NCBI GenBank assembly: GCA_965153455.1
Contig: OZ234493.1
Span: 13,692,213 to 13,756,212 of the forward strand
Reading direction: 5' to 3'
From: Sphagnum compactum
Lineage: Eukaryota
Length of the DNA: 64,000 bases
Numbering within the stretch: position 1 is the first letter of the stretch; every line of letters starts with the position of its first letter. A program made the translations under genes and the position numbers. The notes under the pieces were generated by a model, which saw nothing but the letters and a program-made list of their open reading frames with translations, was not told the origin of the DNA and ran no database searches. Of the stretch, positions 2,897 through 25,804 are shown piece by piece.

Positions 2897-2916
2897 TTTA
2901 GGGTTTAGGGTTTAGG
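2897..2916 (+). repeat. Short interstitial plant telomere-type repeat (TTTAGGG)x~3
   Basis: Sequence reads tttagggtttagggtttagg. Confidence 0.7.
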
Positions 2917-3576
2917 ACCCCAACTATTAAGGACCCCAAACTCGTCACCAAAAAAGAAAAACTCCAGCACAAATGCTGAAATCACTACCAATGTATAACA
3001 AATGGTGAAAATTAATTAACCCATTACCACCTTAAAAGAACGGTGGCTCACCCTATATATATAGGTCTTGCTGTTGTTTTCCGAGGTGGAAACGAGCCCT
3101 ACCATAGAGTCCATTACTCACTATCAATGTCATTTGGAATGGACAGAACCATTAACCATTCCACAGTTACATTAATTATTATCAATTAGTTTGTTCATTC
3201 GTTACGTGTCATTATACAACCACATCAAAGACATTCACATAGTCCTATTTAGTTAATGGATGGACTAGTTTGCCATTGACAATTTAAATGAACTAAAAAC
3301 AAAGTTACAACTGGAGTCAGTCAACAGTCCTAATAAGCAACTGGTCTCCCAGTTGACCAGTTGTGACAGCCAACCAGCCAGCCATGCACACACAACTGGT
3401 TTCGAACTTTTCCAACTCCCAGCCTCTCTGACAAGCTCTCAAGGCAATCAATCAGTAATCCCAGCAACAAAAGGTTCACATGTTTCATATGCAAAAGAAG
3501 GCATCACAAACACGCTGGCCTTGCCAAATAGATAAAGATGTTGTACCTTTACCTACTGTGTCCACAGTCCGAACAC

Positions 3577-3771
3577 CCAAAAAATCCGTTCCAATCTAAA
3601 CAGTCTAAACACTTTCACCAAAACAACCAGTTCATCTAATGTGAAACTGGTTTTAATAAGGTAAAATTTCCAAAAAAATCTGCTCCAATCTAAACAGTCT
3701 AAACACTTTCACCAAAAAAAACCAGTTCACCTAATGTGAAAACTGGTTTTAATAAGGTAAAATTTCCAAAA
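3577..3771. repeat. Tandem duplication, ~95 bp x2
   Basis: ccaatctaaacagtctaaacactttcaccaaaa...ctaatgtgaaactggttttaataaggtaaaatttccaaaa occurs twice head-to-tail. Confidence 0.9.
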
Positions 3772-5360: not shown

Positions 5361-5367
5361 TATAAAA
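5361..5367 (+). promoter_or_regulatory. Probable TATA box of the peroxidase gene
   Basis: TATAAAA follows a CpG-rich stretch (5100-5360), about 330 bp upstream of the peroxidase ATG. Confidence 0.55.
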
Positions 5368-5688
5368 AGAGAACCCGAGCAGCTCCGTCTCATCAGCAAT
5401 TGTGCAACAACATCGAGCAAAGTTCACTTCTTCCTTGGAAGCCTGATCGATCTCCTGCTGTGTGCAGCAAACATATTCGTAAAACAGCTCGGCAATCGGA
5501 TGTGTAGTCGAGTACTCAGGAAATTGGGGAATGTATATTTAGGTGTGTAGTCAAGTACTTGCCAGAGCTTTCGAACAAGCGCAGGAGCTGCGGAATTGAG
5601 ATTTCGGTTTCAGCTTTGGTGTAGTGCGTACAGCAGCTAGCAGCTAGTGCAGCATTCCAGCGAGCAGTTATCTAGCAATAGAACAGAT

Positions 5689-7087
5689 ATGGAGGGAAGG
5701 AAGCTGTCAATGGGGATCATCGGCAGCCACCTGCAAGCCGCAGCTATTGTTGTAGTGGTGATGGTGATGGCGTTGATGACAGACGCAGCTAGCACTAGTA
5801 AAGTATCGCCATTGAAGGTGGGGTTCTACGCGACCTCGTGTCCATCAGCAGAGTCTTTGATACAGAGAGCGACGCAAGCGAAATTTAATGTCGACAAGAC
5901 CATCACCGCTGGTCTCCTTCGTATCTTCTTTCACGACTGCTTTGTTCAGGTACTAAGATTGCAGCAGCAGCTACACTTACTTTGGCATTGCCATTCACGA
6001 GTCTGAGGATTCACAATTAAGTACGCATAATTTGATGAACTGCAACTGCTGCATAGACTCGAGGTTCTTGCAGCACCGCGTGCAGCTCTGAATGACTGAT
6101 TAATCTTCTTGCCCGGATGCTATGATCATGTTTGTTGCAGGGGTGCGATGCATCGAATCTAATCAAGAGCACGGCAACCAACAAGGCGGAGTTGGATGCG
6201 GTACCCAACCTCACACTGCACGGAATGGATCTGATCGATACAGCCAAAGCCGCTGTCGAGGAAGCTTGCCCCGGAGTTGTCTCCTGCGCCGATATCATTG
6301 CCCTCGCCACTCGCGACGCCGTCGTCATTGTAAGTATTTCTAGATTCAATCTTTCCACCTTCTTGAATCCACGATCAGCTACCTTGCAGCAGTACGATGC
6401 CACGAGATGATATCACCGCAAGCTCGCAATTTTTTATCTCATGATCATCAGCTTTATACTGATCATACTCGCGGCCGTTGATCATGACTGTTGCAGGCCG
6501 GGGGAGAGACTTACGCAGTGCCGACAGGGAGAAGAGACAGCCGTGTGTCGCTAGCATCTTCAGTGAATTTACCAGGTCCCGGCTTCAGCGTGGCTTCTGC
6601 GGCTGCTGCATTCCGAGGACGCGGCCTCGACATCACGGACATGGTCACTCTCTTGGGAGCTCACACAGTGGGAGGCGCACACTGCGAATTCTTTTACAAC
6701 CGTCTCTACAATTTCAATGGGACCGATGGTCTCCAAGACCCCAGTATGGCAGAGACCTTGGCAGCATCCTTGAAAGCCGCATGCCCCATGAAATCCGTGA
6801 CTAGCAGGTATCTAGAGGGCAAGACTACAGTGGCGATCGACCAAGGTACCGAGTTCGTCTTCGACAAGAGCTACTATCATCAGCTACAACACAACCATGG
6901 CGTCTTGCAAATCGACCAGGAGCTCACTCACGATCCCACCACTTCACCCATTGTGAAGTCTCTCGCTAAGGGCTCAGCTACCCACTTCAGCAGCAGCTTC
7001 GGAAATGCAATCGTGAAAATGGGTAACATCGGGGTGCTCACCGGCTCACAAGGCGAAATCCGCAGAATCTGTTCCAAAATCAACTAG
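5689..7087 (+). CDS. PRX: Class III secretory plant peroxidase; exons 5689-5949, 6141-6329, 6497-7087 (346 aa)
   Basis: Hydrophobic signal peptide, then [14 protein letters not shown], distal-His motif [40 protein letters not shown], proximal-His [14 protein letters not shown] and [23 protein letters not shown]. Two phase-0 GT-AG introns join in frame. Confidence 0.96.
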
Positions 7088-8020
7088 AAACAACACAAAA
7101 CCCAACACCAAGTTCTTGGTGGTGATCAACTCTTGAAGAACCACCACCCTTCATCACTTCACCATAGACAAATTTGGGATTTTTTTGTAGAACAAGAATC
7201 CACAACCATTCTTTTGTACAGTCCACTAGACACACAACATCATTCTTTGGCAAAATCATGCCCCCCAAAAACATCTCTTGCACAAATTCTGAAGTCATAA
7301 CAATTCTGAGCATGAGATTCAGCTGCTGTCCATAGCTGCAGAATTGTGCACTAGAAAAGTAGCTTAATCTTTGGGGATCTTCGAATCCCCTGAACATGTG
7401 TATGAAAGTATTGGATCATCAAATCCCTTGTACATTTTACATTTCTAAGAAAACCCATTCCTTTACACATGCAAAGGGTCTGAATATAGATCCTTTCAAA
7501 TTTTCAGCTCCTCCACTCAAATTATCATTGGCCTCGTGACAAGAGCCTCAAATCTGGACGAGTCTATACTCAAACCCTCCTTGGTACAAAATGGTTATAA
7601 AGGAGGGAACATCACACTTTATTCATTTGATTATATTGACCCAATTTGATATCCTCCCACCATTCATCTATCCATCCATGGCAGTGCAAATTTTACTTTT
7701 GTTTAGGGGTCGAAATTTATGAAAATGTCAAATATTATGTAGTTGTCACTAGTGTTGGGTGGTTATGTAGATAGCGAGTAATAATCAACGATTTCGGTTC
7801 CAAATTTTGAATACCTTACCCTAACCTTGATCTCTATTTAAATACCTAGACAAGGACCTTACCCTAAGACCTGCCCCATCTTAGGATTCAAGTTCAACCT
7901 CGGAACTTGATGACCGTTGATTTCACAATATTTTTAAGACCTTGCACTAGTGGGTATCTTTAAAAATTTCAAGGTTTTGGTTTGTTTTTTCAACCTTAAG
8001 GTTTAGAGTTCTGTTTCCTT

Positions 8021-8908
8021 TTGCCACACATCGCATTCCATCCCTCCTTTCATGGTAAGCTTTTTTTTTGGTGTGATAATGACCCCCTCCTTCTTACTTT
8101 TTTCTTTCCTTTCTCCTCTTTGTTTATTCATTACAATGATTGGGGAATCATTCTTGTGACAGCAGTAGGAACACTGCTGGCTTTGGTTACAGGCATGTTA
8201 CCGCAGTGGCGTTTTGAAAAATGGGCATGTCGAAGGAAGACTGAAAAGGTGGTGATTCTCACTGGTGGGAATGGCACAAGGCATGTAATGGTCATTATTG
8301 GTGCTGGCAAAGGACTGGATCTTGAGGATCTGGGAGTTGGAGAAAGCCCAAGGATGAGGCAACGAACTGAGCACGGCAACCGGCTTGCAAGAAGGGAACA
8401 TGACAAGGATGGGAATGTTATGAAGGACTTAGAAGGCAAAGAAAAAAAGAAGATCTTGATGCTTTGTGGTGTGCCTGTCTCATTCTGGATAACCCAGGTT
8501 TCATGCTTGATACTAGCATTTCTGTGGATTGTGTTTCTCATCACAGTTGCAGGGCTGAAGCAGAACACATGGTACCTACTTGCAATTGGAGGACTTGGCA
8601 TGATCCAGAATGTAGTGGTTGCAGGGGCGAGTCGGGGACCAAGCACAATGGGCATTCACTTGAAGCCAATCAAGATAATTGAGCGACTCAAGGTCATGGA
8701 TGCATCGATGGATCTTGAATCATACCGGAGAGATTGTGGGAGGTCTTTGCTTCCTGAATTCTTCAATGGGAAGTTAAGACCTGCAGAAGAAAAATGGTGG
8801 GATGGTGACACAGAACAGTATGAGAGAGTCAGGCGTGAGCAAAGACCTACCAGCTTGCCAGAAGAGAATCTGCCTGTGTTACCTGCGGGAAATGACCAAC
8901 AAGTATGA
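8021..8908 (+). CDS. Fungal-type uncharacterised multi-pass membrane protein, probably N-terminally truncated (recognisable from ~8128; first in-frame ATG 8195)
   Basis: Intronless open frame with DWGIILVTAVGTLLALVTGMLPQWRFEKWACRR, LTGGNGTRHVMVIIGAGKGLDLEDLG, WIVFLITVAGLKQNTWYLLAIGGLGMIQNVVVAGA, KVMDASMDLE and GRSLLPEFFNGKLRPAEEKWW. I recognise these from a widespread fungal hypothetical protein family. The first ~36 codons look like non-coding pyrimidine-rich DNA. Confidence 0.75.
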   Translation: MPHIAFHPSFHGKLFFWCDNDPLLLTFFFPFSSLFIHYNDWGIILVTAVGTLLALVTGMLPQWRFEKWACRRKTEKVVILTGGNGTRHVMVIIGAGKGLDLEDLGVGESPRMRQRTEHGNRLARREHDKDGNVMKDLEGKEKKKILMLCGVPVSFWITQVSCLILAFLWIVFLITVAGLKQNTWYLLAIGGLGMIQNVVVAGASRGPSTMGIHLKPIKIIERLKVMDASMDLESYRRDCGRSLLPEFFNGKLRPAEEKWWDGDTEQYERVRREQRPTSLPEENLPVLPAGNDQQV

Positions 8909-9984
8909 GATATGATGGTCCTTCCACATCACTCTCATGTGGTATGACATGTGGCATTTGGATATGGTTTATACAGTTTTCCATATCATTGTGATTGTAA
9001 AGTCAGGCAGTTTTTTTGTATGCTACTTCAGACATTTCCATTTGTGTGCCATTTGGTTTCTATCTATTCTTGAAAGTCAGGTTAGTTCTTTTGTTAGTAG
9101 TGGACATTTGTATGCATGATCTTTTTGACAGTATACCTTGAGCTCAACTTGGTTAATTACTACTGTAATAGCTTTTCAGGCTCAGCATAATTATATTATT
9201 TTTGTAAATTCTGAATTTTTAAGAAATAATTTGGTTGAAACAGAAATTCAATGAAATAAATTATTACCAGACTACTCAACCACAATAGTGAAGTATGGGA
9301 ATAGGCCTATATTTTTTGACATAATACCAGCTGAAAATTTTGTAAAGTGTTTTTTCAACTGCTAAGTGGATTTTGAAAAATAAAATAATTATAGACATCA
9401 CAGATGGCATACACAGATGGTTCTAAATAAGTATTGGTTTTCATATGGCCTTCTCTGCCTCTTTTTAGTGGGATTACAACACACAATTGGCAGGCCTTCT
9501 TGGGTCCACCTGACATAACCATTGTTCAAAATCCACATGCTCATTGTGCAAATCATGAAAACTATTATGTTATGGAGCGTGCCTGCTGCATGCCATTGAG
9601 CTCATTTAGCTGCCAGTTGAGAAATTTTGGCAAGCTCAGAGGCACCTCACCAGGCACAATTGCCTGTACTTGGCATGATCCACAACACAAAATATTCAGG
9701 CCACCATTGTCGTAGTTTTTGTTGTTGTCTGATCTACAGCTCTTGCAGATTTCCCTGAAACCCTCATGATTGATTCTTAATAGGAAGGGACCATGTTGTG
9801 TGATGCATGCCTCAACGCATTCATATGCCTTGTGTGTATTTTAGTTGTGTTGTGGATTTTGCTTTAGGAGTCTTGACATGAGCAATGTCCCATATTTACA
9901 ACCAAGGTGCTTTGAGCCCTTTTTCTGACTTATGTGTACAGGCTTGTTTATCCCACAGGCTTAATTTTTCTTATTTGATACTAG

Positions 9985-11198
9985 ATGATGATCTGCAACG
10001 TTCTGCAGATAGTAGAGAGTTGGGAGACCAAGAAGTTCACTTTGTGACGTGCATTTGAATGGAACATCACCATGTGTGACAGGCTTTAAAACAAATGTTT
10101 GGTGACCTTACATGTCTTTGTGGGGCCCTCTGCAAATCACATTGATGTTTCTGAATTGTGCTCCAACATGCTTTCAATCATCCATAGGAGATGTTTTTTT
10201 TTCAATTTTGTAGTTTTGAAACTTTGGCAAATTCTTCCAGATTTTTGGCAAATTTTTTCAAGTTTACACTACAAAATAAAGTACAAAATTTTCCAATTCT
10301 TTTTGTAGCCACAGTGTGAAAATTCACCAAAAAAAACTATTATTTAGGAAAATGTACAAAAAGTGGCAATCATCATTAGGGGAATTTAGCCAAATGTGGC
10401 AATAAACAAAATGTAAAGCTCAAATCTTTAATCATCCTTCTATATTTCTGGCTACTTACTGGAAACCAAATCTAGAAATCTGGCAAGTTTTTACTGTTTT
10501 TTTCATTTCTGGCTACTGAAACCCTAAAACACACTTCATTTTCAAGTTTTAATTTCGAACTTTTGGCAACATTTTGCCAGTAAAAAAAGGATGATTCTGA
10601 TGCTATGGTGTACATGCGCTGTGCCATACAAATGGCTAATTGACTTGATTTGCACGTCTAGGCCTGAGTATAAGCGAGTTGAAGGTTTTCAATTTAAGTA
10701 TACACAGCAGGCCACATGTCTTGATGGGAAACTTTGAATCCAGGCCATGGGTTGCATTGCTGGCTGCAAAGGCAACAGGGACTGAACAGTTGAACAACTT
10801 TTGATGGATTGTGCAGCATCCAAAATTTGCTAAGGGTGAGGAGCATTCTGAGAAGGGGAGGGAGAATTTTCAACAACTGCAATGGCAATGCACAACAGTT
10901 TCAGTTTAGTTCAAGAGCTCAATTGAATAGCTAAAGATTATGACTGCTTAAAGAGGGTGAATGCATCCATTTACACAGATCATATGATTCGGCTTTGAGT
11001 TAGACATGCATGTCAGGGTAGTAGCCTTTTTCATATGTAAACGAAATTGTGGGAGGATTAGAGGATTGTTCAACAGGATTTCCACATGCAATGTGATTGC
11101 TTGTGGGGATGTCACGATTTCCTGACAATCTGGGATTTCCTGACAATCTGGGAAAGGGCAGAAGGCATTAGCAATATCACAAGATATCCAGCGGGAAG
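9985..11198 (+). pseudogene. Degenerate exons of an unknown gene, cut by the MULE insertion
   Basis: After acceptor ctag (10661), one frame runs 10663-11198 with 9 stops (6 TGA, 2 TAA, 1 TAG) and an in-frame 18-bp duplication. A short exon-like piece at 9985-10082 has two TGA stops. No homologue recognised. Confidence 0.4.
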
Positions 11199-11549
11199 GG
11201 CTGGAGTGAACCAGCAGCCACCAATGCACCAGTTCAGGATGAGGCCGTTCAAGCCGTTTTGGGGATGAATCAAAAACACATCCTCTTCCCCTGCCCAGGG
11301 ATTTTTCAGCCCCTTTTTCTGCCCCAAAATTTTCCCCTCCTACCTACTTCCCCCCCTCCTACCTCCCTCACCTCATTTCCTGTGCACTCCATCTCCTAAG
11401 CTTGGGAGAGCTCCCGAGCTTGAGTAGCACAAACCTTTGAAGAGATGTAGACACAAGGCTTGAGGAAGGTGGAGAGCTCAACGTTGAAGGAATGTGAAGA
11501 GGAGAAAGCAAGAGGAGCATTTCATCCCAAATGCAGAAGTGAGAGAAGA

Positions 11550-12290
11550 AAGGTAAGCTCCCTCCCTTCTCTGCATTTTTTTTTTCTGTGGTTTTTTTTT
11601 CTTCGTGTTTTTTTTTTTTTTCTTTTGTTTGAGAAGAAGAAGATGCCAAGAGAAAGCGCTTGAAATGAAAGGGCACAAGCAGGAGGGCAAAAGCAGGAGA
11701 GGGTAGAGCGGGAGCTTGAAGGTAAGCTCCCTCCCTTCTTTGCATTTTTTTTCTTCTTTATGGTTTTTTTTTTCTTTGTGTTTTTATTCTTTTCTTTTGC
11801 TTGAGAAGAAGAAAATGCAAGGAAAAAGCGCTTGAAACGGAAGTGCAAAAGCGAAAAGGCAGAAGTAGGAGCCAAAATGAGAGGGCAGAGCAGGAGCTTG
11901 AAAGTAAGCTCCCTCCCTTTTCTGCATATTTTTTCTTCTCCATGGTTCTTTTTTCTTTGTGTTTTTTTTTTTCCTTCTGTTTGAGAAGAAGAAGATGCCA
12001 GGAGAAAACACTTGAAATGGAAATGCAAAAGTGGAAGGGCAGAAGCGGGAACCAAAAGTGAGAGGGTAGAGCAAGAGCTTGAAGGTAAACTCCCTCCCTT
12101 CTCTGCATATTTTTTCTTCTCTATGGTTTTTTTTCTTTGTGTTTTTTTTTTCTTCTGCTTGAGAAGAAGAAGATGCCAAGAGAAAGCAATTGAAACGAAA
12201 GTGCAAAGGCGGGAGGGCAAAAGTGGGAGCCAAAAATGAGAGGGCAAAATGGGAGCTTGAATGTAAGCTCCCTCCTTTCTTTTGATTTTT
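11550..12290. repeat. ~170-180 bp tandem repeat array (about 4 units) inside the MULE
   Basis: Unit aggtaagctccctcccttctctgca-(T-rich)-ttgagaagaagaagatgccaag...gcttgaaa recurs near 11550, 11720, 11900, 12080 and partly at 12260. It explains the many spurious K/F-rich ORFs here. Confidence 0.9.
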
Positions 12291-15200
12291 TTTTTGTTGT
12301 TTTCTTGTGTGTTTTATTTTATTTGTGTTTGAAAAGAAGAAGACAACGACAATGTGCCATCATCTTCTTCTATGGTGGTGTTGTAGAAAAGAAGAAGACA
12401 ATGGCAATGTGCCGACGTCTTCTTCTATGGTGGTGTTCCAATGAAGAAGGCAATGGCAACTTGTTGCCATCGCTTTCTTCTTTGGTGGTGTTAAGGTTTA
12501 ATTTGGTGGTTTTTGGGTGTTTATAGGGTTTAAGGCACAACAAAAGAAGAGTTTGTTGCAAATGCAGTTCAGGTTGAAATGCAACATTACCATCTGTACA
12601 TTGCTCGTCATGCAGCAAGGGCTACAAATGCAGTAGCTTCTTACCAAGCTAAACACAAGATTGTAAATAATGATATGGTTTAGGGTTTCCAATTTATATA
12701 GTCAGCTAGGTTTTTTTAGCCCTTTCATTTTTTGGACTACCCAATTTTTGAACTTTGGTCCTTCGATATATTATAAAAAACATTTTTTCATTATGTTCTT
12801 TAGCATTTTTTGATCCACCCATATTTGTACATCTTTTATCAATATAATATTTTCCTCTAGTCACACTTGTTTGATGAGTATATGGTTAATTATATATGTC
12901 TTCTTTTTCATATTCTTCTTTAGTACTTTAGATGTAAGAATCAAAACTTAAATAGGCCCATATGAATATGTAACATTAATTTGTCTAAGGTTTACAAATA
13001 TCAAAATGAACATTGTGCAATACCTACATCCTTTCTATTATAATTTCCATAAGGCCATTTCAAATATGCAATACCCACATGTAAGTTTGTAAATAATTGT
13101 TGGTTTTTTTACATCCATTGCAATACCTGCATATAGTTCTTGTAAATAGTTGCTGGTTTTTTTTACATCCATTGTAATATTCGCATATAAGTCTAGTAGT
13201 TGATTTTTTTAACATCCATTATAGTACCCGCATATAGGTCCATAAATAGTTGTTGATTTTTAACATTTTTTGCCATACTTACATATAAGTTTCCATTGTA
13301 ATATTTATGGGACTCATATGACAAAATAATTTAGTCTAAGTATTAATAAATAATGTCATAATTAAGGAATTACTAAAAATTTATTTTAGATAATGTAAAT
13401 GATTGATTATCATATTTAAACAATCATTTATTTCTTAATCTTAATTAACTGATTATTTGGTTGAACCTTAATGATTCAGATAATTAAAATTTAGATCTAA
13501 AAATCAAATCAATAATTTGATATTTAATTTATTATCTTAATTAGTTTTTTATGTTGATAAGTTATTCAAATCATTATTTTAGACAATTATTCATGATAAT
13601 TAATTATCATAAAATTAACTTAGGTATATAAAGAGACATATTTTGGGTACCCAAACCACTTATTTTGAAGTGACTTTACATGTGGGTATTGCATTTAGGG
13701 TTGATTATTCTCCTAAGGTTGTCTAAATCACCTATGGATTATTTCAAAATGAACTTGCATGCAGGTATTGCATAAAGTTTTGGTTTTCATTGAAAGGCCA
13801 TCAAAACTACATACTAATTATTTCAAAATGACCCTACATGTGGGTACTACATTTAGGGTTGGGTCTATACCTCAGGTTTACCTAAATCACCTAAGGGTTA
13901 TATCGAAATGAACTTGAATATGGGTATTGCATTTAGGGAAACGTAAAAAAAAGGTATATATTTTACCATTTGGTAATATTTCCAAGTTAAGTTCTTTCAC
14001 TTTCTTTAAAAAAATATAAAATGACATTGCATTGTTTTACATATGTTTAAGCCCTAAAAATTCCCGCCCAAAATGCACCCTAGATTTATTTTAATTATTA
14101 TAGACTTGTAAAAAAAATGTTAATTAATTTATATGTTCTAAACTCCAAACCTAAACCATAGTTTTAACATTAAGTAGTAAATTTTCATTAAACCCTAACC
14201 CCTTGTATCATCAATGTGACCAATTTTGCATTATATTCATTTTTATATATGTTAAATCATATTATAAGGTGAATAAATAATTTTGAAAACATGAATTTCA
14301 TGATGTATTGGCGGGGAATCAAATATTTAGAAAATAATTTTATGTTTTATGGTTAATGAATTATCACAATATGATACGAGTATTGCATTTAAACAAAAGT
14401 GGGTTAAGAAATATTGAACTTTAACAACTATGGAACATATGGAAACAAAGGAAATTCATAATTATGTTATAGATATAAATAAGTGATAAAATAAAAAACC
14501 AATATAATGAACAAAGTTTACAATATAAACCTTAAGCCTTGATATATATGAACCAAATTCCTAAACATTAAATCATAAGGCATAACCCTAAAAATCTAAA
14601 TGATATTTTTCCATAAGCCTTATTACAACCCTAATTATACAAACCTTAACAAAAAATATCTTAATGATATATGCCCTAAACCTTAAAAAACTATACAAAG
14701 TATATAAATTATAATGCAAAACAAAAAAATTTAAAAAAACATAGGAAAAAAATTTTAAACCAAATTTTAAAGCTTTTAAACTACAAAGATTTACTAATCG
14801 AAAAAAAACCTTAATCTTAAAAAACAATCAAATAAATTTTGTAAAAAAACAAAAGAAAATATATGTCTCTTACCTTTGTGTGATCTCTCCAAACTAATTT
14901 TTTCCGTTCTCTTTGAAAAGGATATAAAATGAAATTGTATTATTTCACATATGTCTAAACCCTAAAATTTTTGCCTAGTTTAAGTTAATTACTATAAATT
15001 TGTGAAAAAATTGCTAACTAATTTATGTGCCCCAACCTTAAACCTAAACCGTAATCTGATAGTACAACTTATAATAATTACATAAAAAGATGTATTTTAA
15101 TGTCCATTCCATAAATAAATTAGGTAAAAAAATTTAGTAAAATATGAATTAACTAAACCCAAATTGTTGTAATTATGACATTGTTTCCACTATAAATTGT

Positions 15201-15299
15201 TTATAATACTTACATATGGGGACCTATGTTCATCATCCATGAACTAAGGTGAACCTTAATAAATTGATAGGTAGGATTGGGGGGCGGGGGTGGGAAAAG

Positions 15300-15980
15300 T
15301 GAATAGGTAATTAGTTAGGTATTTGGCTATGTAAAAAACATAAGTAGGTAGGTGAACATAGTGGTAGGTAGGAAGGTGGGTGCATAGGTAGGTAAGTAGG
15401 TATATAAGTACGTAGTTGGGTTAGTAGGCAAATTAATAAATAGAAAGGCAGTTCAAAGAACAAGGTAGATAGGTTACTAGAGTAGGTAGGTAAGTAGGTA
15501 TATAGGTAGGTAGTTGGGTTAGTAAGCAAGTTAGTAAGTAGAAAGGAAGTTCAAGGAACAAGGTAGATAGGTTACTAAAGTAGGTAGGCATGTAGGTAAG
15601 CAAAAGTTACTACGTAGGAAAAAAGTTACACTAACAAGGTAGCTAGGTAGATAGGCAAGTTAGTACATAAGAAACAAGTTACCTTATCAAGGTGACTAGG
15701 TTTGTAGAATATTTATGTCAATAGAATGGTTGTGTATATAGGGTTGCTAAATAGTAATGTAGCTAGGTCAATAGGGTAGGTAGTTAGTACAATGATTAGG
15801 TTAGTAGGGTATGTAGTTAACAGGGTAGCTAGGTTAGTAAAATAAATAGTTAGTATAGTAGTTAGGTCAGTAGGATAACTAGTTATTAAGGTAGCTATGT
15901 CATTAGAGGATAATTAGTAAGGTACCAAGGTTGGTACAATATTTATGAGGGTAGGAAGGTGAGCAAGGTAGCTATGTGTG
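15300..15980. repeat. Degenerate (TAGG)n-like low-complexity tract inside the MULE
   Basis: Repeated gtaggtag/gttagtag words, plus an internal duplication (gttcaa..gaacaaggtagataggttacta). Confidence 0.8.
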
Positions 15981-17766
15981 AGGTCAGGTCCAGGAAATAA
16001 CAACAAAGAACAAACCAAAAAAAAAAGTACAATGGTCAGCAACGAAAAGAAATGGACTGTGATGAACTCCATCTGACGCCGAATGAAAAAACGCAGCCCA
16101 TCCAGTGGACAGAACGGCCAACTGGTGCATTGGTGGCTGCTGGTTCACTCTGGCCAGCGGGAAGAGGTGAACCAAACACTCAAAATTTTGTGGGGACTTT
16201 TGTATGTATGTGTGCATTGTTATACTGTTCGACGTTGGCAGGTGTGTTCACGAACTGATTATTAATGTTCGTTTGAGTTGAAGGCATCAGCATTGTCTCT
16301 GAAAGAAAAATGTACATTTGTGTTGATGCTAGCTAGACTGGAGCTAGCAGCTACCCATGTGAGCTCCAGCTAATTTCCCTCAACTACCCTTAACAACCAA
16401 GGGTTTTTGACCCTTAACGACCCATCCATATATGAAGGAAGTTTTGTTTTTTTTGGGGTTATGGTGAGATCTCCCAAACCACAATGCTTTAGGCTGTGTT
16501 CTTGGTATCATTGGAAAGCTTTCATTGAGTATGGGTGCAACATTTTGGAACTTTAGCGCAAAAGTTATTAACTATTCAACCATTTTCTCACTACAAATTG
16601 TATGAGAATTTGAGGTGTTCTTGGTATTCCTGGAACTCCTTGAACGAATCAGATTTAATGGAATTTATTTCATAATTTTCAGGTTTAAGGTGTGGAAGAA
16701 ATTGAGTTTTTAGTGGATTTTGTTATATTGGAAATTCAAAAAATTACAAAAACTTGATTTGGAAGAAAAAATCAGTTGAGTGTGTTCACACTTGTGCCAA
16801 CGGCCCAGGCTACCCTAGTACATATAATAGGTATCAGTGAAGGTGCTAGCTAGTTCAGCCAATGCATAATTGTGTATTCTCATACAGGGTTCTCCAAGTT
16901 GCCAATGCAATATCTCACCAGGTCGTCCGTTTTACAAAATGCCCACCCCATTATTATCTTTTATAATGTACCCTCTACATACACTGTGAAATCTGGAGCA
17001 CTGCTTTATGGGGTATTCAACGTCTCGCTATACCAAGATGCTCATCATCACGGATTTTAGCTCGTACAAAACTTATTAGCATTTGTCTACTAGCCCCATC
17101 CAATGTTATTTTTGTCAGATTTGTAGCCAAAGTGGCAGTGATCCATGGGAAATTTTAGCCAAATTTGGCTGCAAGCTGAATATGAAAGAATTTTTTTACA
17201 ACATCCTTCTACATTTTTTTCTACCTACTTGAATCATGTGTAAAAATATGGCTTTTAAAAAGAAAATGTGGTCGAATTTCTGGCTATTGAAGATGGAAAA
17301 AAGCACTTGATTTTAGCACTTTTACTTTTTAGTATAGGTTTCTGGCTATATTTATAGCCAGCGAAAAAAGGTTGGGCCCCCATCACACTGTGCAGGAGCC
17401 GCAGCACTTTTCCTGACACCCCCGTGAAGTTCGATGGGGGTGTATAACGTCTTCCCTGTTCAGGCCAGCCTGTTTGTTGGATATCTTCCTGGTACTTAAA
17501 GCCTGTGGCATCGCACTTTCAAGCTGTATGCGTAGTGCAGCGTTTTTTTCGTGAAACCCTGGAAGCCTTTTTTTGGTTGCAGAAACGATGATGACTGGAT
17601 TGGTGGAATGGCTCAGCTTGCTTTGAGTACGTGTGGAAACAAATGTGGAACATGAAGGTTTAGATTTCCTGTCTGTTTCAATTTGATTAGCGGCCTGTGT
17701 GAACGGCAGAAACACTCACTCGTTTTTGCAAGCGTTGGACGGGGTCGAGGGGGACAAAAATTCCTG

Positions 17767-18139
17767 GTAAGTTCTAACTTTTCAGACAAAAAATGTCTGA
17801 AAATCGAGCTGTATCATTCATGCAGACTTTTACTTATGATTTTGTTGCAACACAATGTAGCTGGCGATGGGTGTGTATGTCTAGAGCTCTTGTATATTTT
17901 GAATCCCTCCTTGCACTTTAGTGGGCCTCAACTTCACTGAAATTTGGTTTTGTGTCATCAAGAAATGGAATGGAATCTAATAGCGTACCACCTGTTGTTG
18001 GAAATGAAATATCTGAGACATTCCTATTCTAACATTACCACATTTGCACCTTCAAAGAGATTTCCGATCAGTATGGATTTTTGTAGATTTTATAAGGGTT
18101 AGGATTTATAGCCTTTTGATTTGTTTGTGGGTGTTACAG
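17767..18139 (+). other. Putative 5'UTR intron of the HET-domain gene
   Basis: Strong donor ctg|GTAAGT at 17767 and acceptor gtgttaCAG| at 18139, about 160 nt before the ATG. Confidence 0.5.
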
Positions 18140-18301
18140 GTCCAACCAAGGAATGGGACAGAACTCAGAATCAGACAGTACAAGAATAAGGTTGCTGTAA
18201 AATAAGAGAGTGAAATCACCAAAAGGAAACAAAACTCATATCCAACAACCACAACTTGTATTTATTCTGACATCTATCTAGTATACTTGTTATTTTCCAA
18301 C

Positions 18302-20434
18302 ATGGTATCTCCACACGAGCCACCTTTGCCATCTTTGGACAATACCTTCATCTTCAAAGATGCTCCATGGTTGGGTGGAAAGCACGATGGATATCCTTTG
18401 TTATCATTCAAAGACTACATAAGAGCACGTCCCAAGATCTCTACTCTTTCAAGTCGTGAGCGTGCAGCAGAGTTGCAATGTGTGTTGACATTTGGCCTGT
18501 TGGAAGCAGTGATGGAAGTTAAAATCCTTGAAAGCACGCTACTACAACAAGGTGCTGACAACAACTGTAGTATTGGTGGTGACAGGAACAAGGTGTTCAT
18601 GACAAGCAAAAATTTCCCAGCACTGTTGAAGGATTGGCGGAACCGTGTCCTACAACTTGGAAATGGGGAGCCATGTCAGCAGTGGGCAAAACGCATTCAT
18701 ACTACACTCAAGCAGGCACATGGAATGCTCACGATGGATGTGTCATGTAGATTGTTTCAGGATGCAGGGTTGCAGTCGCATGAACTGGTAGATATCCTCT
18801 TCCAAATAGGGTCTATTGCTGAAGCTCTCGTGTCCTCAAGAGCAATTTTTCCACAAAACTTTGTACATCATGGGTTTGGTTCATGGTTGGTTATACTAAA
18901 CACTTGGCCATACATACAACTCAAAACAGACATGGTTGCGAATGGATGGTGTCCATTCACAATTGAGATTTTGTCAGAAAGTGTAAGCATGCTGGGATAC
19001 GCACGCACTTGCAAACATCCCCATATCAGAGAATTACCTGAGGCACATAGGAAATGCACCACACAATCATGTGTGATAAATACGATCGATACTACCAATT
19101 ATGTGCCAAAACATGTCATAGGAACTTGCAATTGCGACAGGTATAAGCCGTCATTAGAGAATATCATTAGTTCCCTGTCAGTTGGTAAGATACCAGTGAT
19201 CCAATGCCCTCTGCCCCATGAGGCGCTACTTTCCAGTGACTCTGTAAGGATGCCTTATGTAGCGATATCCCATGTGTGGGCTGATGGATTAGGGAGCACA
19301 ACTGAGGAAGGACTGCCAGCATGCCAAATCAGGCGGCTTGTGACATTGACCAGGCAGCTGACACAGGATGGGGCATTTTGGATTGATGCACTTTGCATCC
19401 CTGCTGTCAAAGATATGAGGAAACGGGCAATAGGGTTAATGGCCACGACCTACAATGAGGCAGAAGTTGTGCTGGTGATTGATTCCGGCATCCGAGCAAC
19501 TTCAGTTTCCTTACCACGTGAGGAGAAATTGTTACACTTGTTGTCTTCAGGATGGATGCAACGGCTCTGGACTCTCCAAGAAGGGATTTTGGCTCAGAAG
19601 CTTGTTTTCGAGTTTTCAGATGGGTTGGTAGCCTTGGAAGAGCTTTTGCCAATGGGAGAAGAGATGTTTAACCCTGTGCTTGTTGACCTTGCAGCGGAAC
19701 TTTTTCGGCTTAAAAAGCACCAAGTTAGGCCTGGTAGCTTTTACATCAATGATGCAGCATGCGCTCTCCGCTGGCGGACTACAAGCAGAGAAAGCGATGA
19801 GACGCTTGCAATCTCTGGGCTGTTGAACCTTGATGCCTTTGAACTAGCTAACCTTCCACCAGATCAACGCATGCAAACTTTCCTCCTCCGCATCCAAAAC
19901 TTGCACAGGGATATCATCTTCCTATCTGGTGTGAAATTGAACAAGGAAGGGTTTCGTTGGGCACCTAGAACACTAATGCGACATTTACCCACTAGCTTGG
20001 ATTTTGGTGAGTACAAAGCGCTCTGCACATCCACCGGCCTCATGGCAGAATACTATGCTATATATTTCCTTGAGACGGTCATTGATGGCGAACATGAATG
20101 GTGCATTCATGACTTATCTAAACAACGATTTTATAAAGTCATAGATCAATGGTTGGGGCCTGATGCTATGGAAGCTGGATATGCCACTTCTTATTCCTGC
20201 AGTGTTATATTGTTAAAGGAATTGCCAGAGGTGTCAAATATCACATCTTGTGCAGTGGTTCTAGTTCAGGGCCTGGTTCCAAGAGAAGGCTCTGAAGATG
20301 AAGGAGATAGAATGTTGTGTGAGTTCAAGAAACGATTGCTTCTACAAGACATCACCGAAACCCAGTTGAATAGCAGTAGGGCTTTGACAAGAGTGATTGC
20401 AAAGTCTGGGAGGATGAGAGTGAAGATTGTTTGA
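18302..20434 (+). CDS. Fungal-type HET (heterokaryon incompatibility, PF06985-like) domain protein, 710 aa, intronless CDS
   Basis: Uninterrupted ORF from ATG 18302. HET motifs PYVAISHVWADGLG, FWIDALCIP, AIGLMATTYNEAEVVLVID, WMQRLWTLQEG and RWRTTSRESDE. N-terminal LQCVLTFGLLE, GWCPF and HxxCTxxxC...YVPKH...CNC motifs are typical of long fungal HET proteins. Confidence 0.93.
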   Translation: MVSPHEPPLPSLDNTFIFKDAPWLGGKHDGYPLLSFKDYIRARPKISTLSSRERAAELQCVLTFGLLEAVMEVKILESTLLQQGADNNCSIGGDRNKVFMTSKNFPALLKDWRNRVLQLGNGEPCQQWAKRIHTTLKQAHGMLTMDVSCRLFQDAGLQSHELVDILFQIGSIAEALVSSRAIFPQNFVHHGFGSWLVILNTWPYIQLKTDMVANGWCPFTIEILSESVSMLGYARTCKHPHIRELPEAHRKCTTQSCVINTIDTTNYVPKHVIGTCNCDRYKPSLENIISSLSVGKIPVIQCPLPHEALLSSDSVRMPYVAISHVWADGLGSTTEEGLPACQIRRLVTLTRQLTQDGAFWIDALCIPAVKDMRKRAIGLMATTYNEAEVVLVIDSGIRATSVSLPREEKLLHLLSSGWMQRLWTLQEGILAQKLVFEFSDGLVALEELLPMGEEMFNPVLVDLAAELFRLKKHQVRPGSFYINDAACALRWRTTSRESDETLAISGLLNLDAFELANLPPDQRMQTFLLRIQNLHRDIIFLSGVKLNKEGFRWAPRTLMRHLPTSLDFGEYKALCTSTGLMAEYYAIYFLETVIDGEHEWCIHDLSKQRFYKVIDQWLGPDAMEAGYATSYSCSVILLKELPEVSNITSCAVVLVQGLVPREGSEDEGDRMLCEFKKRLLLQDITETQLNSSRALTRVIAKSGRMRVKIV

Positions 20435-20846
20435 AGCATGATCAAAGCAATTTAAGCAATTGTTCAACTTAATATCATATATATATTTATTGTTGTGCAA
20501 CTATGGGTCACCATCTAACTGGCGTGTTCCAAATATACATATATAGATATATGGAAACGATAGGTATGTACTATGACATGACACTTTAGCTATGACTTCT
20601 TGAATTCAATTTTTTTGTGAGAGAAGGAAAGGGGAGTAGATTATCTGTGCCTCTTTGAATAGTTAGTTCTGCTGGTGAGAATTTGTGCATCAGATCACAT
20701 GATTAATGGATCACTTGCGCTGCCAAAGCTACTTTTGGTAATCAGGCCTCTTTTTTAATATGACGCAGCTTTCTCATAAGATTGTTTCGGGTTTTTCTCA
20801 GTGCAATTCACAATCCCCATATGCGGATTGATCTCACACAACTGTG

Positions 20847-21156
20847 AATAGATTCAAGGATTTCATCACAGTATGTCTCATTGCTTTCACAGCCATGTAC
20901 CTTCTTATTGTAGAAAAAAATAGGTCATAGTTTATAGTTGCAAATATTGCATGTTCAGGTCACTAGCAACATGATGAGCATGCATGTTACAGAGCTTCAT
21001 TGCACTTCATGAACAGATTCTAGGATTTCAGCATCAGTATGTCTCATCAGCTTCTTACAGCCATGTACCTTCTTGTTGCTGAAAAAATTTGGCCATAGTT
21101 TCCTATTGCAAATATTGCATGTTCAGGTCACAGCAACATGGTGAGCATGTATGTTA
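20847..21156. repeat. Imperfect tandem duplication, ~165 bp x2, downstream of the HET gene
   Basis: agattc.aggatttca...cagtatgtctcat...acagccatgtaccttctt...ttgcaaatattgcatgttcaggtcac..gcaacatg.tgagcatg.atgtta occurs twice. Confidence 0.9.
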
Positions 21157-21459
21157 TGGATATTCATTGCATTTTGTGCATATGCTAGTTGCCAGATTTC
21201 CTATTTTATTTATTATTCCATGATTGATTATGCTGGTCATATGCCTTGTATGAATTGCAGAGAGGAAGAAATCAATCAGGAGGAAGCAAGGATGAAGCCT
21301 GCCTATGCTTGACAATCGAGTTGCTGTCAACAGCATAGGCCGTCCACACTCAATGAAACTTTGAAAAGTGTTTCAAGGTGTGCATTTTTCTTTCCTCCCT
21401 CCCCCTGTTCAAATTTTGCATTAAACCTTTTTGGTAACCAAGAGTAGACCTTTGATTTT

Positions 21460-23060
21460 AGATGGCAGAGTTTCTGCAGGCATCAACACTCCCATGATCT
21501 TCTCCATTAAGATCTGCTTGGATGGAACAGAACTCATAGGCATCAAAAGAGATGTATGATGCTAGACGGAGTGCACCACAAAATGGAAAGCAATATGCAG
21601 CTCTGCTTCAAAGCTCATGATGCACCTTCAACTCCCTCAAGGCGCACCAACTTCCTCACTTGCAATTGCAAAAGTGAAGACATCAAAGATGAGTGGACAT
21701 GTTTTTATTCACTATTGCTTCTCTTTAAGGACTGTGTAACTCATCAATTTTGAGTACAAAGAAGCCAATAACAATCTCGTGAAGACCCCTAGCAAAGAGC
21801 TAACATTTCCCACCTTGACATCAAGCAACTCATGACCTGTTTTTTTATCTTGGCAGATCTTCCAAGACCAGGCCCTGTCATGAGAGGGACCTAGTAGCTT
21901 TAGCAGATGAATCCTAATTGGTCATCTACTATATTGCAGCCAAACCATGTAAGTTACTGCCAAATCATACTAAATGCTACTTTGACCTACACTGTGCCAC
22001 TACTTAATAAAGTGACAAAATTGGAGGTCAGATAACAGTTCTTTTGTTTGCTTGCTCGTTCTTTTGTTTCTTTTGATACTCTTTCATTTGTAGCAATATA
22101 GAGGCTGGGCATGTGATGTGGTAATATTCTTCTTGCACTAGGGGGAATGCTAGTTGGTTCAAAAAAACCAGAAATTTCTTATTCACTCTTCTTGTTGAGA
22201 TCAGGACCTGCAGGACCACTTTAGACAAACATCAAAGTTGTAAGCCTCTAACAAAATTGTGACCCACAAAGGTTAGAATCATGCAGGTGGTTGAATTGTT
22301 GATTTTCAAGGGGCAAATGTCTCTACAGTGAATAGGTGAAATTTTGAGTCCTGATTCTGTCTCTCTGCTGCTGCTGCTGCTGGGCTAAAATGCCAATTGC
22401 TGAGTTTTTAGAAGAGTTGCATGTATTTAAAGGTTTGTATATGAAGCTGTGAACTGTGGAACAAACCATTTGTGTCAAGATAAGTTCCACTACTGCATTG
22501 AGCCTGCATGAAAGTAATTGGCCTCTATTCTGCCACCTTCCCGATTTCACAACATCCCTCTTGTCTCCTCCACCCTTTGCCTGTTCAACCCACTTACTCT
22601 CCAACTTTTTTTTCACTGCTTAAACTGGGTTTATATACTCACAAGGTTTTTGCAACAATAAACTTATTAGAATTTGAAATGTGAAACACACTACTCTTGC
22701 AGAACAACACCCTGTATGCATGTGTCTTTCCAATACCTCCTTTCTGAGGCTTCTCAGGGTTATAGTGCATAATCATCTTATCCTTGTTAGTATGCATTAA
22801 ACTTGGACATTCTGGATTTACAATTCTGCAGATTGAACTACTGAAATCCCTTGGACCAGTTTCTTTCATTTCCAATACGAGGTATGCCTCTTACAAGTGC
22901 CTGACCCAACAGTGACTGTATGGGAAAAAAGTTGCAGAAGCACATGATTTGCTCCACAATTCCTTGAGGCTTTTTATGTAATTCAATTGGCCTTTTTGGT
23001 ATTCCATAGGTGTCTTCTTCTTTGTGGAGCTGCTGGACCTTCTTGCACTTCATTTGCATC
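21460..23060 (-). pseudogene. Possible degenerate multi-exon gene or TE ORF of unknown family
   Basis: Protein-like minus-strand frames with scattered stops, e.g. after ctgcag| at ~22207 PDLNKKSE*EISGFFEPTSIPPSARRILPHHMPSLYIATNERV..., and MKETGPRDFSSSICRIVNPECP... ending at donor-like GTGAGT. A CT-rich leader-like tract lies at 23190-23230. No family recognised. Confidence 0.3.
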
Positions 23061-25804
23061 TCGGGGGCGGGGGGGAATCAGCAGTAGAGAGGAGATGACA
23101 AATGCACGAAGGAGAGGAGAATGATGCATCTCTTCTGAAGTCTATAGCAATTTCAGGGATGTAAACATAAACAGTAAGGTGTGGGAGGACGGGGGCAGGA
23201 GCAGAGAGAGGGGGTGAGAGTAGAGAGAGTGTGCGGTGTGTAGGCCTTTTTGGGTTCTGCTTGTGCTTTGTCTCTTCTTAGGGTTTGATGTGTTGTATCG
23301 ATTAAGGAAGAAGAGCAGGAGACGAAGCAGAAGAAGAAGAGGAGTACCGAGATGTGAGAATGGAAAAACAGGAGAGGGTTTGCTGTCCCATCGTCGGACT
23401 AAGGCAGACCTTAATCAAGATCTCAGAATAATGGTGAAACCTGAGCATAGACAGCTCAGCTTCAACCACCCTTCCCTCTTCTCTGGGAGGGAATGACCCA
23501 AATGTGAAAGAGGCAGTGCTAGGGTCTCATAGCTGGAACCTCAAGATCTCTCTAGAATGGCCAGGACCCTTTTATAAGTCTCAGTAGCCCTTTGATTCTC
23601 ATCTAGGTCAGTGTATGTGGTAGCTTGCCCCATCAGAGTCTTGGCTAACAAGGGGCTGTTTTGCCTTGTCAAAACAAAAAAGCAAACATTAATAGCCAGA
23701 TGCAAATATCAAACTCTTTTACCCACTACTTTGAGGCCTCAACATCGTCACACCCTGCAGGCACAAATGGAAAACACAATTCTGCAAAACCCATAACTCA
23801 GAATACACCCAAGAAGTAATTTCCAGAATTGACAGAAAAGGACTCAGCCATGATATTGGCTAGCAGTTTCTCAAAGACCTCTTGTTCATCTGCCATTCTG
23901 CAAAGACAAAAAAGAAGGGGTGGAAAAAGAATGACAATCCGCTGTATGCCAGGCAACATCCTAGAGCCCGCCCAGCAACAACAACAATAGCAGTAGTCAA
24001 AGAAGGTAAGGCAGGGGTAAAAACAAAACAAAACAAAACCAAAACCAAAACCAAAACTGTCTAAGTTAGCACAGAGTTTGCAACACTTACATTACTGCCT
24101 TTCCAGATGCAATTACATTATCAAGGTTTTTCTTGTATCACCATTGTCAAGTTTTTTATTGTATCATTGTTTTCCTTGTGATCATCATCATGGTGTTCAT
24201 CTAAGCTTTCATCACAATGGTCATCATGCGTTGTAGGTACATGCTTCCTTTCATACCCACCCTGTACTTGTTTTTTTCCTCTATTGGACCCTTATGTCCC
24301 TAGTAGGTTTCCTTTTCCTTCTCCAATTCTTTGTCATTGATGTTAACCTTTGTTGTGTCTATCTAGACTATGTTTCTTTTTGTTTACCTACAATGGTTTT
24401 TTTTCCCATTGAAAGGTGTGATGATCAAAACAATGAATGGACAAACAAATAGATGGATATTTGGGTTTTTTACCACATTGTCTACACAGTTTGTGGTCAA
24501 AGTGAGTAAAATTTGACAAGAATAAAGGAAGCATGTCTTCACAACCAAATGTGTGATGGATGCTTCAACAATTTGGGTGTGTGAAGGAGTCATAGATTAT
24601 TCAAGTTTTATATCCACAAATTCCCTTGTGTAGCAACATCTTTTTCAATTATTACCATTCTTGGGTCCAAAAGTTTGAATAACTCTTTTAATTATGATGA
24701 AATTACACACAAATTCAACAACAATTCAACAACAATGGTCTAAGAAATTTTTTTCGAAAGTAGACGTAGGAGATCATAGTAGTGTTAAAAGATTTGTTTG
24801 GTGTTTTTTCCCATGCTCTGGACAAATTGTGTTTTGTTTAAAAATTATTGGTATACAAAGCAAGGGATTGGTGATGTTTATGAATGAATCTAGTCATGTG
24901 TTTCCATGCATTATTCATACAACCTTGTTAAGGGTAGAAATTTCTATGTTAATTAATGTCATGGGCATCCTAGTAATTAAAGGGTTACCTAATGGTAGTA
25001 ACTTACCATCTTTTACTAAAGGATGAAGTTAATGGGATTAGTTAAATGAATGGTTGATGGTAACCTATCAATCATGTGTGGATTTTTAAGAATGATAAGG
25101 ATTGGTATCCGATCAACTAATGGGATGTGTGGAAGGATTAGTATAAGGATAAAGAAGGCTTATTTCATGGAAAGCATGTGGACCTTGTGTGGTATGGGAG
25201 AAGGGGGATTAGGAGGAGGATAAAAAGGGATTGTGGATCAATCCTTTGGATTTGAAAGATTATGATTCTAAATTAGATGTGACTAGGAGAGTTCTTTTGA
25301 GGAAGAAGTGTGTGTGACGTTGAAGAAAGAGGAGGAAAGTATGGAAGCAAGTTGTATTTTCATTATTTTAGTGGAAAATGATTGATGAATTCTCATGGCT
25401 GTTTGTTGGTGTTTGGTTTTACTTAGAATACAAAAAGAGATATGAAATGTGATATCAAAGAAGGACCTCTTTGTGACAAATAAATGATCCACGATCTTAG
25501 GCATAATTTGTATAGTGAAACAAGTGGTTTTTTTGTCTGAAGAACAAGTTTTTGTTAGAAAGTTGACCAAATTGCAACTAATTTTGCAACTAAATGAACA
25601 TAAAAGTTTATTGCTGGATGAAAAATCCAAGAAGCTAGTCAATATGGAAGGACTTGTAATTTAATAATTGCACCATAGTTGCAAAAATAGTCATAAATTT
25701 TAAAAGATGATGACTAGCTGTAAAAATGATGAAACAAAGTTGCAAATGATAAGTAGTCGCATGTGGTCGCATTGTAGTTGCAAATTGAATGGTTACATAT
25801 TACA

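Follow-up and report, generated by a model that had tools for sequence, protein, structure and literature searches.

What is a gene with a fungal death domain doing in the chromosome of a peat moss, did it arrive together with its neighbour, and do the two still form a unit? We addressed this question in a stretch of 64,000 nucleotides of Sphagnum compactum (contig OZ234493.1 of assembly GCA_965153455.1; hereafter the window), in which an initial annotation had described two fungal-looking genes on the same strand, one encoding a protein with the HET (heterokaryon incompatibility) domain and the other, upstream of it, a membrane protein that we call the partner. We found that the HET gene is intact, spliced in its leader and selectively constrained, that the partner copy is a truncated fragment, and that genes of the two families are neighbours in fungi as well as in moss. 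The locus is probably best described as a partly decayed copy, in Sphagnum, of a fungal HET and partner pair acquired anciently; an old two-gene block of fungal origin would later have been duplicated and partly decayed within the genus.

The HET coding sequence occupies positions 18302-20434 on the plus strand and runs uninterrupted from ATG to stop over 710 codons. The encoded 710-residue protein matches the Pfam HET family (PF06985) at residues 319-400, which correspond to window positions 19256-19501 and to profile positions 1-92 of 146, with an E-value of 3.2e-11 and 44.2 bits against a gathering cut-off of 22.5, so that the HET assignment of the initial annotation is borne out. We also found what we take to be the three conserved sequence blocks of the HET domain (YVAISHVWADG, FWIDALCIP and SGWMQRLWTLQEG), whose positions are invariant or nearly so across 84 family members; the conserved residues in the window protein include S323, H324, W326, D328, W360, D362, C365, R421, W423, T424, Q426 and E427. 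The closest homologues belong to unnamed or Sphagnum clusters (82-95% identity), followed by Ceratodon (52%) and by Aspergillus and Armillaria (approximately 50%). The window protein itself has no exact entry in the collection searched; P0124, the cluster representative that matches it best, shows 95% identity across 66% of its length, and PF06985 is precomputed on 119 of the 120 listed homologues.

The AlphaFold2 model of the HET protein (pLDDT 89.0, pTM 0.89) consists of a helical bundle (residues ~25-235), a conserved Cys/His stretch (~240-290), the alpha/beta HET domain (~295-480), a helical linker and a C-terminal beta-sandwich (~573-709). When the model was compared with solved folds, Foldseek gave nothing convincing (best E 0.15) and the best VIA-align match (Z 7.4, rmsd 3.3, 123 aligned) involved the helical N-terminal domain only; no TIR chain appeared among the 50 matches listed by either program for this whole-protein model, the lists being filled by matches to the helical N-terminal domain. 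Sequence profiles of the HET protein and the partner, searched against the PDB, returned nothing below E 0.027. Within the Cys/His stretch, H249, C252, C257, H271 and C278 are conserved in the long-HET family and could, judging from their conservation, be a candidate metal-binding site. We also observed that these five residues, together with C217 and C341, are nearly invariant just before the HET domain.

Upon examining RNA and DNA reads over window positions 16170-21490, with approximately 12% of the poly(A) RNA run X22 read at a threshold of at least 97% identity, we obtained 27 reads from this run, which within the HET region are confined to 18128-20085. The first mate of the HET-region reads always falls on the minus strand, which in most stranded libraries denotes plus-strand RNA and hence the sense strand of the HET gene. 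Three reads splice 17766 to 18140, with loose 5' ends at 18139 whose consensus matches 17736-17765 (2 mismatches in 30). These reads, together with the boundaries GTAAGT...TTACAG, indicate that the gene has a spliceosomal intron of 373 nt in its 5' untranslated region (UTR; intron 17767-18139), preceded by exon 1 at 17595-17766, whose 5' end was not mapped; a metatranscriptome contig covers 17595-17744. The gene had been described as intronless, which holds for the coding sequence and fails for the leader. The RNA contig runs X15-X20 contain 21-25% of the HET words (X16 may contain DNA; not counted as expression evidence). Separately, a few RNA reads also fall at 16526-16881, and at 16670-16758 a stretch of 87 nt is skipped in the DNA run (8 reads) and in the RNA run (4 reads), with shared loose ends at 16780. 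An intron at this position was rejected, as the DNA run skips the same 87 nt, and the skip is a structural or strain difference or a repeat copy.

Upon comparison with the copy on L001, a moss-like metagenome contig of 20 kb, the window HET gene carries 58 non-synonymous and 32 synonymous differences (dN/dS 0.51; synonymous excess, binomial p = 0.0029), with dN/dS values of 0.59 in the N-terminal domain, 0.33 in the HET domain and 0.53 in the C-terminal domain. At 4.2% divergence, neither an indel nor a stop is found in 2,130 bp, while the flanks, 94.9-95.0% identical between the two, carry indels. On this comparison of sequences, the HET gene is under purifying selection.

The partner frame, which spans 8000-8908 on the plus strand (302 residues from stop to stop, first ATG at 8195, stop codon at 8906-8908), matches no Pfam family even at E 10. 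Aligned by tblastn with P0001, a Sphagnum homologue of 463 residues, the window copy corresponds to residues 204-463 only, at 89% identity, and the same search found residues 1-203 encoded nowhere in the 64-kb window. Furthermore, the DNA homology of eight moss-like contigs (L001-L008) to the window begins exactly at 8132, and the unique junction of 1,044 bp between the stop of the upstream peroxidase gene and this point (7088-8131) gave no blastn match to the rest of the window or to the 79 partner loci considered below. The sharp start of homology and the unmatched sequence before it indicate that the 5' 44% of the partner gene was lost at a rearrangement breakpoint. The membrane-protein gene of the initial annotation is therefore a same-strand open frame as claimed, but a 5'-truncated one (8132-8908), and position 8021, where the feature had been taken to begin, is not the start of a gene. 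The AlphaFold2 model of P0001 (pLDDT 85.1, pTM 0.79) has approximately six membrane helices, of which the window copy is without the first three or four.

The protein search with the partner gave 131 matches at E <= 0.001, the best 120 of which were examined. Among these, the closest are unnamed products of S. balticum and S. jensenii (78-89% identity), the next are unnamed metagenome proteins (60-64%), and further matches come from Agaricomycetes, such as Dendrothele and Armillaria (approximately 50-55%), and from Ascomycota (35-43%); the relatives are proteins of 400-490 residues. The family comprises 1,510 representatives of 50%-identity clusters at E <= 0.001 and 610 at E <= 1e-30, and in the ESM Atlas it consists of fungal 'hypothetical protein' clusters only. 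The fold search with the partner model reached a best Foldseek E-value of 1.2 against the PDB and a best VIA-align wide Z of 5.6 (rmsd 4.1, 123 aligned), all of these matches being generic helical bundles. Ten longer family members carry no Pfam domain except for one SAP domain.

Six longer proteins with a partner-like part (P0241-P0246) were set aside as evidence. P0241 combines partner and HET in 1,067 residues, and the others are three Fusarium TPR proteins, a Botrytis tulipae NACHT-ankyrin protein and an Aureobasidium glucokinase, which shows that merged gene models occur. The glucokinase apart, they give a hint that partner genes sit in NLR-rich neighbourhoods. On contig L037, one frame of 734 codons (1690-3891, plus strand) encodes a partner-family protein whose loop between membrane helices 4 and 5 accommodates a WD40 propeller of six repeats (Pfam WD40, E 8.5e-76); in the Sphagnum partner copies, the helix 4-5 loop is a variable, charged, low-confidence stretch.

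We then consider how often the two families occur together. Scanning metagenome contigs with the partner alignment yielded 79 loci (from the best 80 of 157 confirmed), which form 62 dereplicated groups at >=97% identity of the partner gene, and HET-like genes were called around them by tblastn with 109 long-HET queries (108 plus the window protein) at E <= 1e-8. A HET-like gene lies near the partner in 27 of the 62 groups, and in 25/40, 21/28, 13/20 and 9/13 of those with a total flank of at least 3, 6, 10 and 15 kb, respectively. The nearest one is 325-3,212 bp away in 25 fungal-type groups and 5.7-5.9 kb away in two moss-type groups, with 17 of the 27 lying within 1.1 kb; among the 12 groups with 10 kb on both sides, nine have a HET-like gene, all within 2.5 kb. 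Relative to the partner, the HET-like gene is upstream and opposite in 12 groups, downstream on the same strand in six, upstream on the same strand in six, and downstream and opposite in three. In about 12 loci the HET alignment also spans the N-terminal domain, which indicates the same architecture.

Additionally, Armillaria ostoyae carries the two genes under near-neighbour locus tags (ARMOST_12085, HET; ARMOST_12087, partner), and the longest contigs given for the two families coincide in length in seven further cases, namely A. gallica, A. borealis, A. luteobubalina, A. nabsnona, Dendrothele bispora and, with two contigs, A. novae-zelandiae. These tags and contig sizes are indirect evidence that the closer fungal relatives (approximately 50% identity) are linked as well. 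No third recurrent gene family was found in the partner loci, and no other part of the window resembles the open reading frames (ORFs) of the fungal loci. The initial annotation had stated that this membrane-protein family often neighbours long HET genes in fungi, and the 21 of 28 groups with at least 6 kb of flank bear this out: the long HET gene and the partner are a conserved neighbour pair in fungi.

In moss, the pair stands within a larger block. Window positions 8132-23366 are collinear with L001, with 87-96% nucleotide identity apart from two insertions in each of the two sequences. By blastn, L001 positions 1184-3636 correspond to window positions 8132-10574, 4465-5075 to 10569-11198, 5072-6452 to 16161-17561, 7238-11165 to 17563-21494, and 11163-11957 to 22570-23366. 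L001 carries an intact partner ORF (689-1966, 425 residues) and an intact HET ORF (7979-10111, 710 residues) on one strand, 6 kb apart. The larger window insertion, of 4,955 bp (11199-16153), has a perfect 31-bp terminal inverted repeat (11204-11234 and 16120-16150) and an 11-bp target duplication, CCAGCGGGAAG, at 11188-11198 and 16154-16164. Target duplications of 9-11 bp are typical of the Mutator superfamily, to which we assign the element for this reason; a Mutator-like element (MULE) had been claimed between the two ORFs and is confirmed, and its removal leaves approximately 4.4 kb between them. L001, in which the element is absent, represents the empty site, and pieces of the element recur inverted in L006 and L007. 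Its interior consists of tandem repeats of 178-181 bp, and the ORFs of at least 130 residues inside it are only of low complexity, with no MuDR-type transposase seen among them (no Pfam scan of the interior was made); by its sequence it fits at most a non-autonomous MULE. A repeat tool reported no inverted repeats of at least 40 nt in 7000-22000, the ends of the MULE being visible by direct comparison. The second insertion relative to L001, 1,076 bp at 21495-22570, shows no terminal inverted repeat, does not recur elsewhere in the window and is unclassified.

Further copies point to a family within the genus. The Sphagnum members of the HET and partner clusters come from S. balticum, S. jensenii, S. 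troendelagicum, S. fallax and S. magellanicum, and the contigs that carry them measure 16-22 Mb. S. magellanicum has the partner CY35_19G000700 beside CY35_19G000900 and CY35_19G001000, the two pieces in which its HET gene is annotated. The family has several paralogous clusters per genome. We distinguished six moss partner copies, among which L002/8, L003 and L004 are in one frame over residues 4/13-463 and L001 has an intact core. On the moss-like contig L005 (71 kb), a HET pseudogene (2022-4320, minus strand) lies inverted 5.7 kb upstream of a frameshifted partner (10001-11376, plus strand), and the interval between the two contains intergenic pieces of the window block in inverted orientation, which indicates an older, decayed and differently arranged copy. 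In the 3' half of the partner, the six copies contain no stop, and all their indels are multiples of three (3, 6, 24 and 42 nt); this fast, frame-preserving change fits either relaxed or diversifying selection. Taken over all copies, the moss block shows a birth-and-death pattern.

Trees of both genes, the check that had been proposed for a fungal origin, place the moss rows within fungal diversity, and the families, which the initial annotation had called fungal-looking, are otherwise fungal by homologues and trees alike. In the partner tree (86 rows, namely 85 listed matches of at least 380 residues plus the window copy; quick IQ-TREE), the moss clade (SH-aLRT 99) consists of four rows with Sphagnum names and one unnamed row. 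It is nested in a half of the tree with 50 rows (98), into which all 21 rows with Basidiomycota names fall, the Agaricomycetes among them, and not one of the 15 with Ascomycota names. This half is not purely basidiomycete, since the P0005 cluster includes a protein from a metagenome-assembled genome of the lichen ascomycete Lasallia pustulata. In the HET tree (65 rows: 50 named, 13 unnamed, the window and L001; quick search), the Sphagnum-type rows (SH-aLRT 100) are united with Ceratodon purpureus and with two unnamed rows in a moss clade of seven rows (99). Its nearest neighbours are a clade of Eurotiales and a long branch of Lenzites (91, unresolved), followed by a Morchella group (88). The single moss clade agrees with an old acquisition, after which the gene was inherited vertically and duplicated, rather than with a recent event. 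An exclusive clade of moss and a five-row Armillaria group was rejected for HET (lnL difference 62, p-AU 0.0011), the group having been chosen after seeing the tree.

Since HET and partner are linked in both fungi and moss, the block probably entered mosses as a linked pair long ago. The linkage favours the transfer of the two genes as a unit, as the initial annotation had proposed, although the trees give no single donor. Under this account, one transfer would have brought the linked pair into an early moss, with the partner subsequently lost outside Sphagnum. At the present locus the HET gene, whole, would have gained plant-style expression signals (the spliced 5' UTR and poly(A) RNA), the partner would have lost its 5' 44% at the 8132 breakpoint, and the MULE would then have landed between the two, with intact partner copies remaining at paralogous or orthologous loci such as that of L001.

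Several results weigh against an old pair that has been kept for use. The window partner copy is the 3' 56% of a fungal-type gene, so there is no complete pair here, and decay is common among the other copies: the partner is frameshifted near residues 82-84 in L005, L006 and L007, the HET gene of L005 is fragmented into six pieces of 45-76% amino acid identity, and the HET gene models of S. magellanicum and S. jensenii are each split in two. Purifying selection is not seen in the partner 3' half, where pairwise dN/dS among the six distinct moss copies is 0.68-2.3, that is, around 1 or more. RNA depth at the HET gene is low, and 23 of the 27 RNA reads are only 95-99% identical to the window; their differences are consistent and also present in a DNA run of the same species label, and these reads may come from another strain or a close paralogue. 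All this would be expected of a leftover of an old transfer that is decaying and functionless today, with a HET ORF not yet broken and transcripts that are noise. We consider such a leftover unlikely, given that the HET gene retains its synonymous excess and an unbroken frame next to indel-bearing flanks, that all six partner 3' halves are in frame, that the leader is spliced and the RNA is of the sense strand only, and that intact copies exist in several Sphagnum species.

A second group of observations bears on whether the two genes travelled together. No partner homologue named from Ceratodon or Physcomitrium is among the best 120 of 131 matches, which means either loss outside Sphagnum or a separate arrival, and Ceratodon does have the HET gene. 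Furthermore, the HET and partner trees put the moss clades next to different fungal groups with no common donor, and, as far as these sequences go, the trees disagree on which fungus that would have been. The metagenome HET genes that adjoin a partner are only 24-33% identical to the window HET, and the spacing within 2.5 kb in nine of 12 groups, while very unlikely under uniform placement, was judged by an internal control only, with no random fungal contigs. HET might accordingly have entered the moss ancestor and the partner Sphagnum separately, their proximity being secondary. We regard this as improbable: the two families are immediate neighbours in fungi, in three quarters of the loci with enough flank (21/28), they are linked in at least three moss contexts (window, L001 and L005), two transfers landing within 6 kb are far less likely than one transfer and one loss, and support along the backbone of the HET tree is weak (88-91, from a quick search).

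That a fungal contaminant contig was mis-assembled onto moss sequence is scarcely credible, even though both ORFs look fungal and the reads examined lie at 16170-21490, outside the junction at 7088-8131, as the block also occurs on independent contigs with moss repeats (L001, 20 kb; L005, 71 kb) and on the 16-22-Mb contigs of five named Sphagnum species, has a plant-type MULE with its target duplication inside, shares the G+C of its flanks (0.44 in the HET region, 0.40-0.45 around it), and yields poly(A) RNA with a GT..AG intron from the same species label. The integration claimed in the initial annotation thus holds, the plant genes on either side, the collinearity with L001, the RNA, the target duplication and the other Sphagnum contigs agreeing on it, and the HET-partner block is a genuine part of the moss chromosome.

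How an anciently acquired pair would work can be proposed only tentatively, and we hold the specific mechanism to be possible though doubtful. The membrane protein would be the sensed or regulating component, and those parts of the HET protein that lie outside the HET domain would read the state of this component; cell death or immune signalling would then be triggered by the HET domain, perhaps via NAD+ consumption as in TIR domains. A 2025 review lists the biochemical activity of the HET domain as not determined (PMC12881547), which weighs against so specific a scheme. The working two-component unit that had been suggested is not supported at this locus, where the partner copy is without its first 203 residues; the moss HET protein encoded here could act by itself or could draw on a partner from another locus, and the pair may have been kept in moss for defence. 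A complex prediction for the whole HET protein with partner residues 204-463 scored 0.00 with no control runs, and speaks neither for nor against binding. On a still wider and equally speculative proposal, the long HET gene and the partner of approximately six helices would be a widespread, undescribed fungal sensing-and-death cassette that crossed as a unit into an early moss and is now a multi-copy immune-type module in Sphagnum, with the partner diversifying, HET conserved, and truncated partners, the present copy included, perhaps serving as decoys or regulators and not being dead genes.

Two-gene incompatibility loci of fungi include het-c/pin-c and un-24/het-6 in Neurospora, and het-B with its linked partner in Podospora. 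The review PMC12881547 names PIN-c, HET-6 and HET-B as HET-domain proteins, and it describes HET as a TIR-related domain whose overexpression is sufficient to kill Podospora cells and as the effector of several incompatibility systems. The locus resembles het-c/pin-c-type loci in that a HET gene, with HET as the death-inducing part, adjoins a non-HET partner, in the tight linkage of the two (21/28 groups with at least 6 kb of flank), and in the fast, frame-preserving change of the partner among copies, here seen in moss. It differs in that the partner is another, unnamed multi-pass membrane protein and in that the host is a plant. With the HNWD receptors of Podospora (het-e, het-d and het-r) it shares a HET/TIR-like domain as presumed effector (PMC12881547); unlike them, the window protein lacks both a NACHT domain and repeats, and instead carries the helical bundle, the Cys/His stretch and the beta-sandwich.

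The closest precedent in a moss is Physcomitrium patens, whose fungal regions FR1 and FR2 (Sun et al. 2020, New Phytol 228:1169), as summarised in PMC7911284, contain HET, HopQ1-like and 'CF' (conserved fungal) genes. The statement in the initial annotation that fungus-derived HET regions had been reported in Physcomitrium is therefore matched by a publication. Elsewhere, the P. patens HET is called 'truncated' (PMC11228847), and a preprint reports induction of two Physcomitrium HET genes by Botrytis and cites Yue et al. 2012 for fungus-derived HET genes in mosses (10.1101/2020.10.29.361329). As in FR1 and FR2, fungus-specific genes including HET lie in moss nuclear DNA mixed with mobile elements, and the window likewise holds genes with fungal relatives only, in a moss chromosome and together with mobile elements; FR1 and FR2 have been proposed to bear on moss-fungus antagonism. 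Unlike the P. patens case, ours concerns a different moss class (Sphagnum), and the window HET is full length at 710 residues, as against the gene described as truncated. No HopQ1-like gene is found among the window ORFs of at least 130 residues, although no search was aimed at HopQ1, and the neighbour of the window HET is a membrane protein of approximately six helices with no Physcomitrium homologue in the best 120 of 131 matches. Possibly the partner family is identical with the 'CF' family that Sun et al. describe, which is the main risk to novelty. Separately, we observed low gene numbers for the copies in S. magellanicum (19G000700-19G001000) and S. fallax (13G000500), which suggests that the Sphagnum partner and HET genes lie near chromosome ends; the one FR1/FR2 gene of Physcomitrium named in PMC7911284, Pp3c13_910, is also low-numbered.

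A fungal HET gene in a moss chromosome is thus already known, and the Sphagnum genes are already deposited as hypothetical proteins. Literature searches combining Sphagnum, HET and horizontal gene transfer, and HET with a transmembrane two-gene system, found no description of the HET-partner pair; what appears to be new, as far as these searches go, is the systematic pairing of a long-HET subfamily with an unnamed membrane-protein family across fungi, and, furthermore, the presence of the pair in Sphagnum and the anatomy of this locus. Among the death domains of fungal non-self recognition, those of the HET/TIR-like kind are the commonest, with activity, structure and triggers given as still undetermined (PMC12881547), and a partner that accompanies one HET subfamily in Ascomycota, in Basidiomycota and in one lineage of plants is a testable candidate for what such a HET protein senses. 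The locus extends the Physcomitrium case to a keystone peat-forming genus with an intact, spliced and selected HET gene, and suggests that the transfer carried a functional pair and not isolated genes. Should the pair still be working in moss, the plant would have taken over a complete immune-type module from the very organisms against which that module may now be directed.

Outside the block, the window has plant genes on both sides. Upstream, the last exon of a class III peroxidase gene (6488-7087, plus strand; open frame; PF00141, E 8e-25) confirms the host neighbour of the initial annotation, with the exon ending at 7087; it matches profile positions 141-236 of 237 only, the C-terminal half, which indicates further exons upstream. 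Downstream, an exon of a PPPDE/DeSI-type peptidase gene (30442-30882, plus strand; PF05903, E 1.4e-31) agrees with the DeSI gene claimed there, at a distance of 10 kb and not the 9 kb given. Finally, positions 56300-59100 have a G+C content of 50-54% and many overlapping ORFs of 140-290 residues on both strands, with AT-rich surroundings, and this segment looks like a retroelement or other foreign insert.

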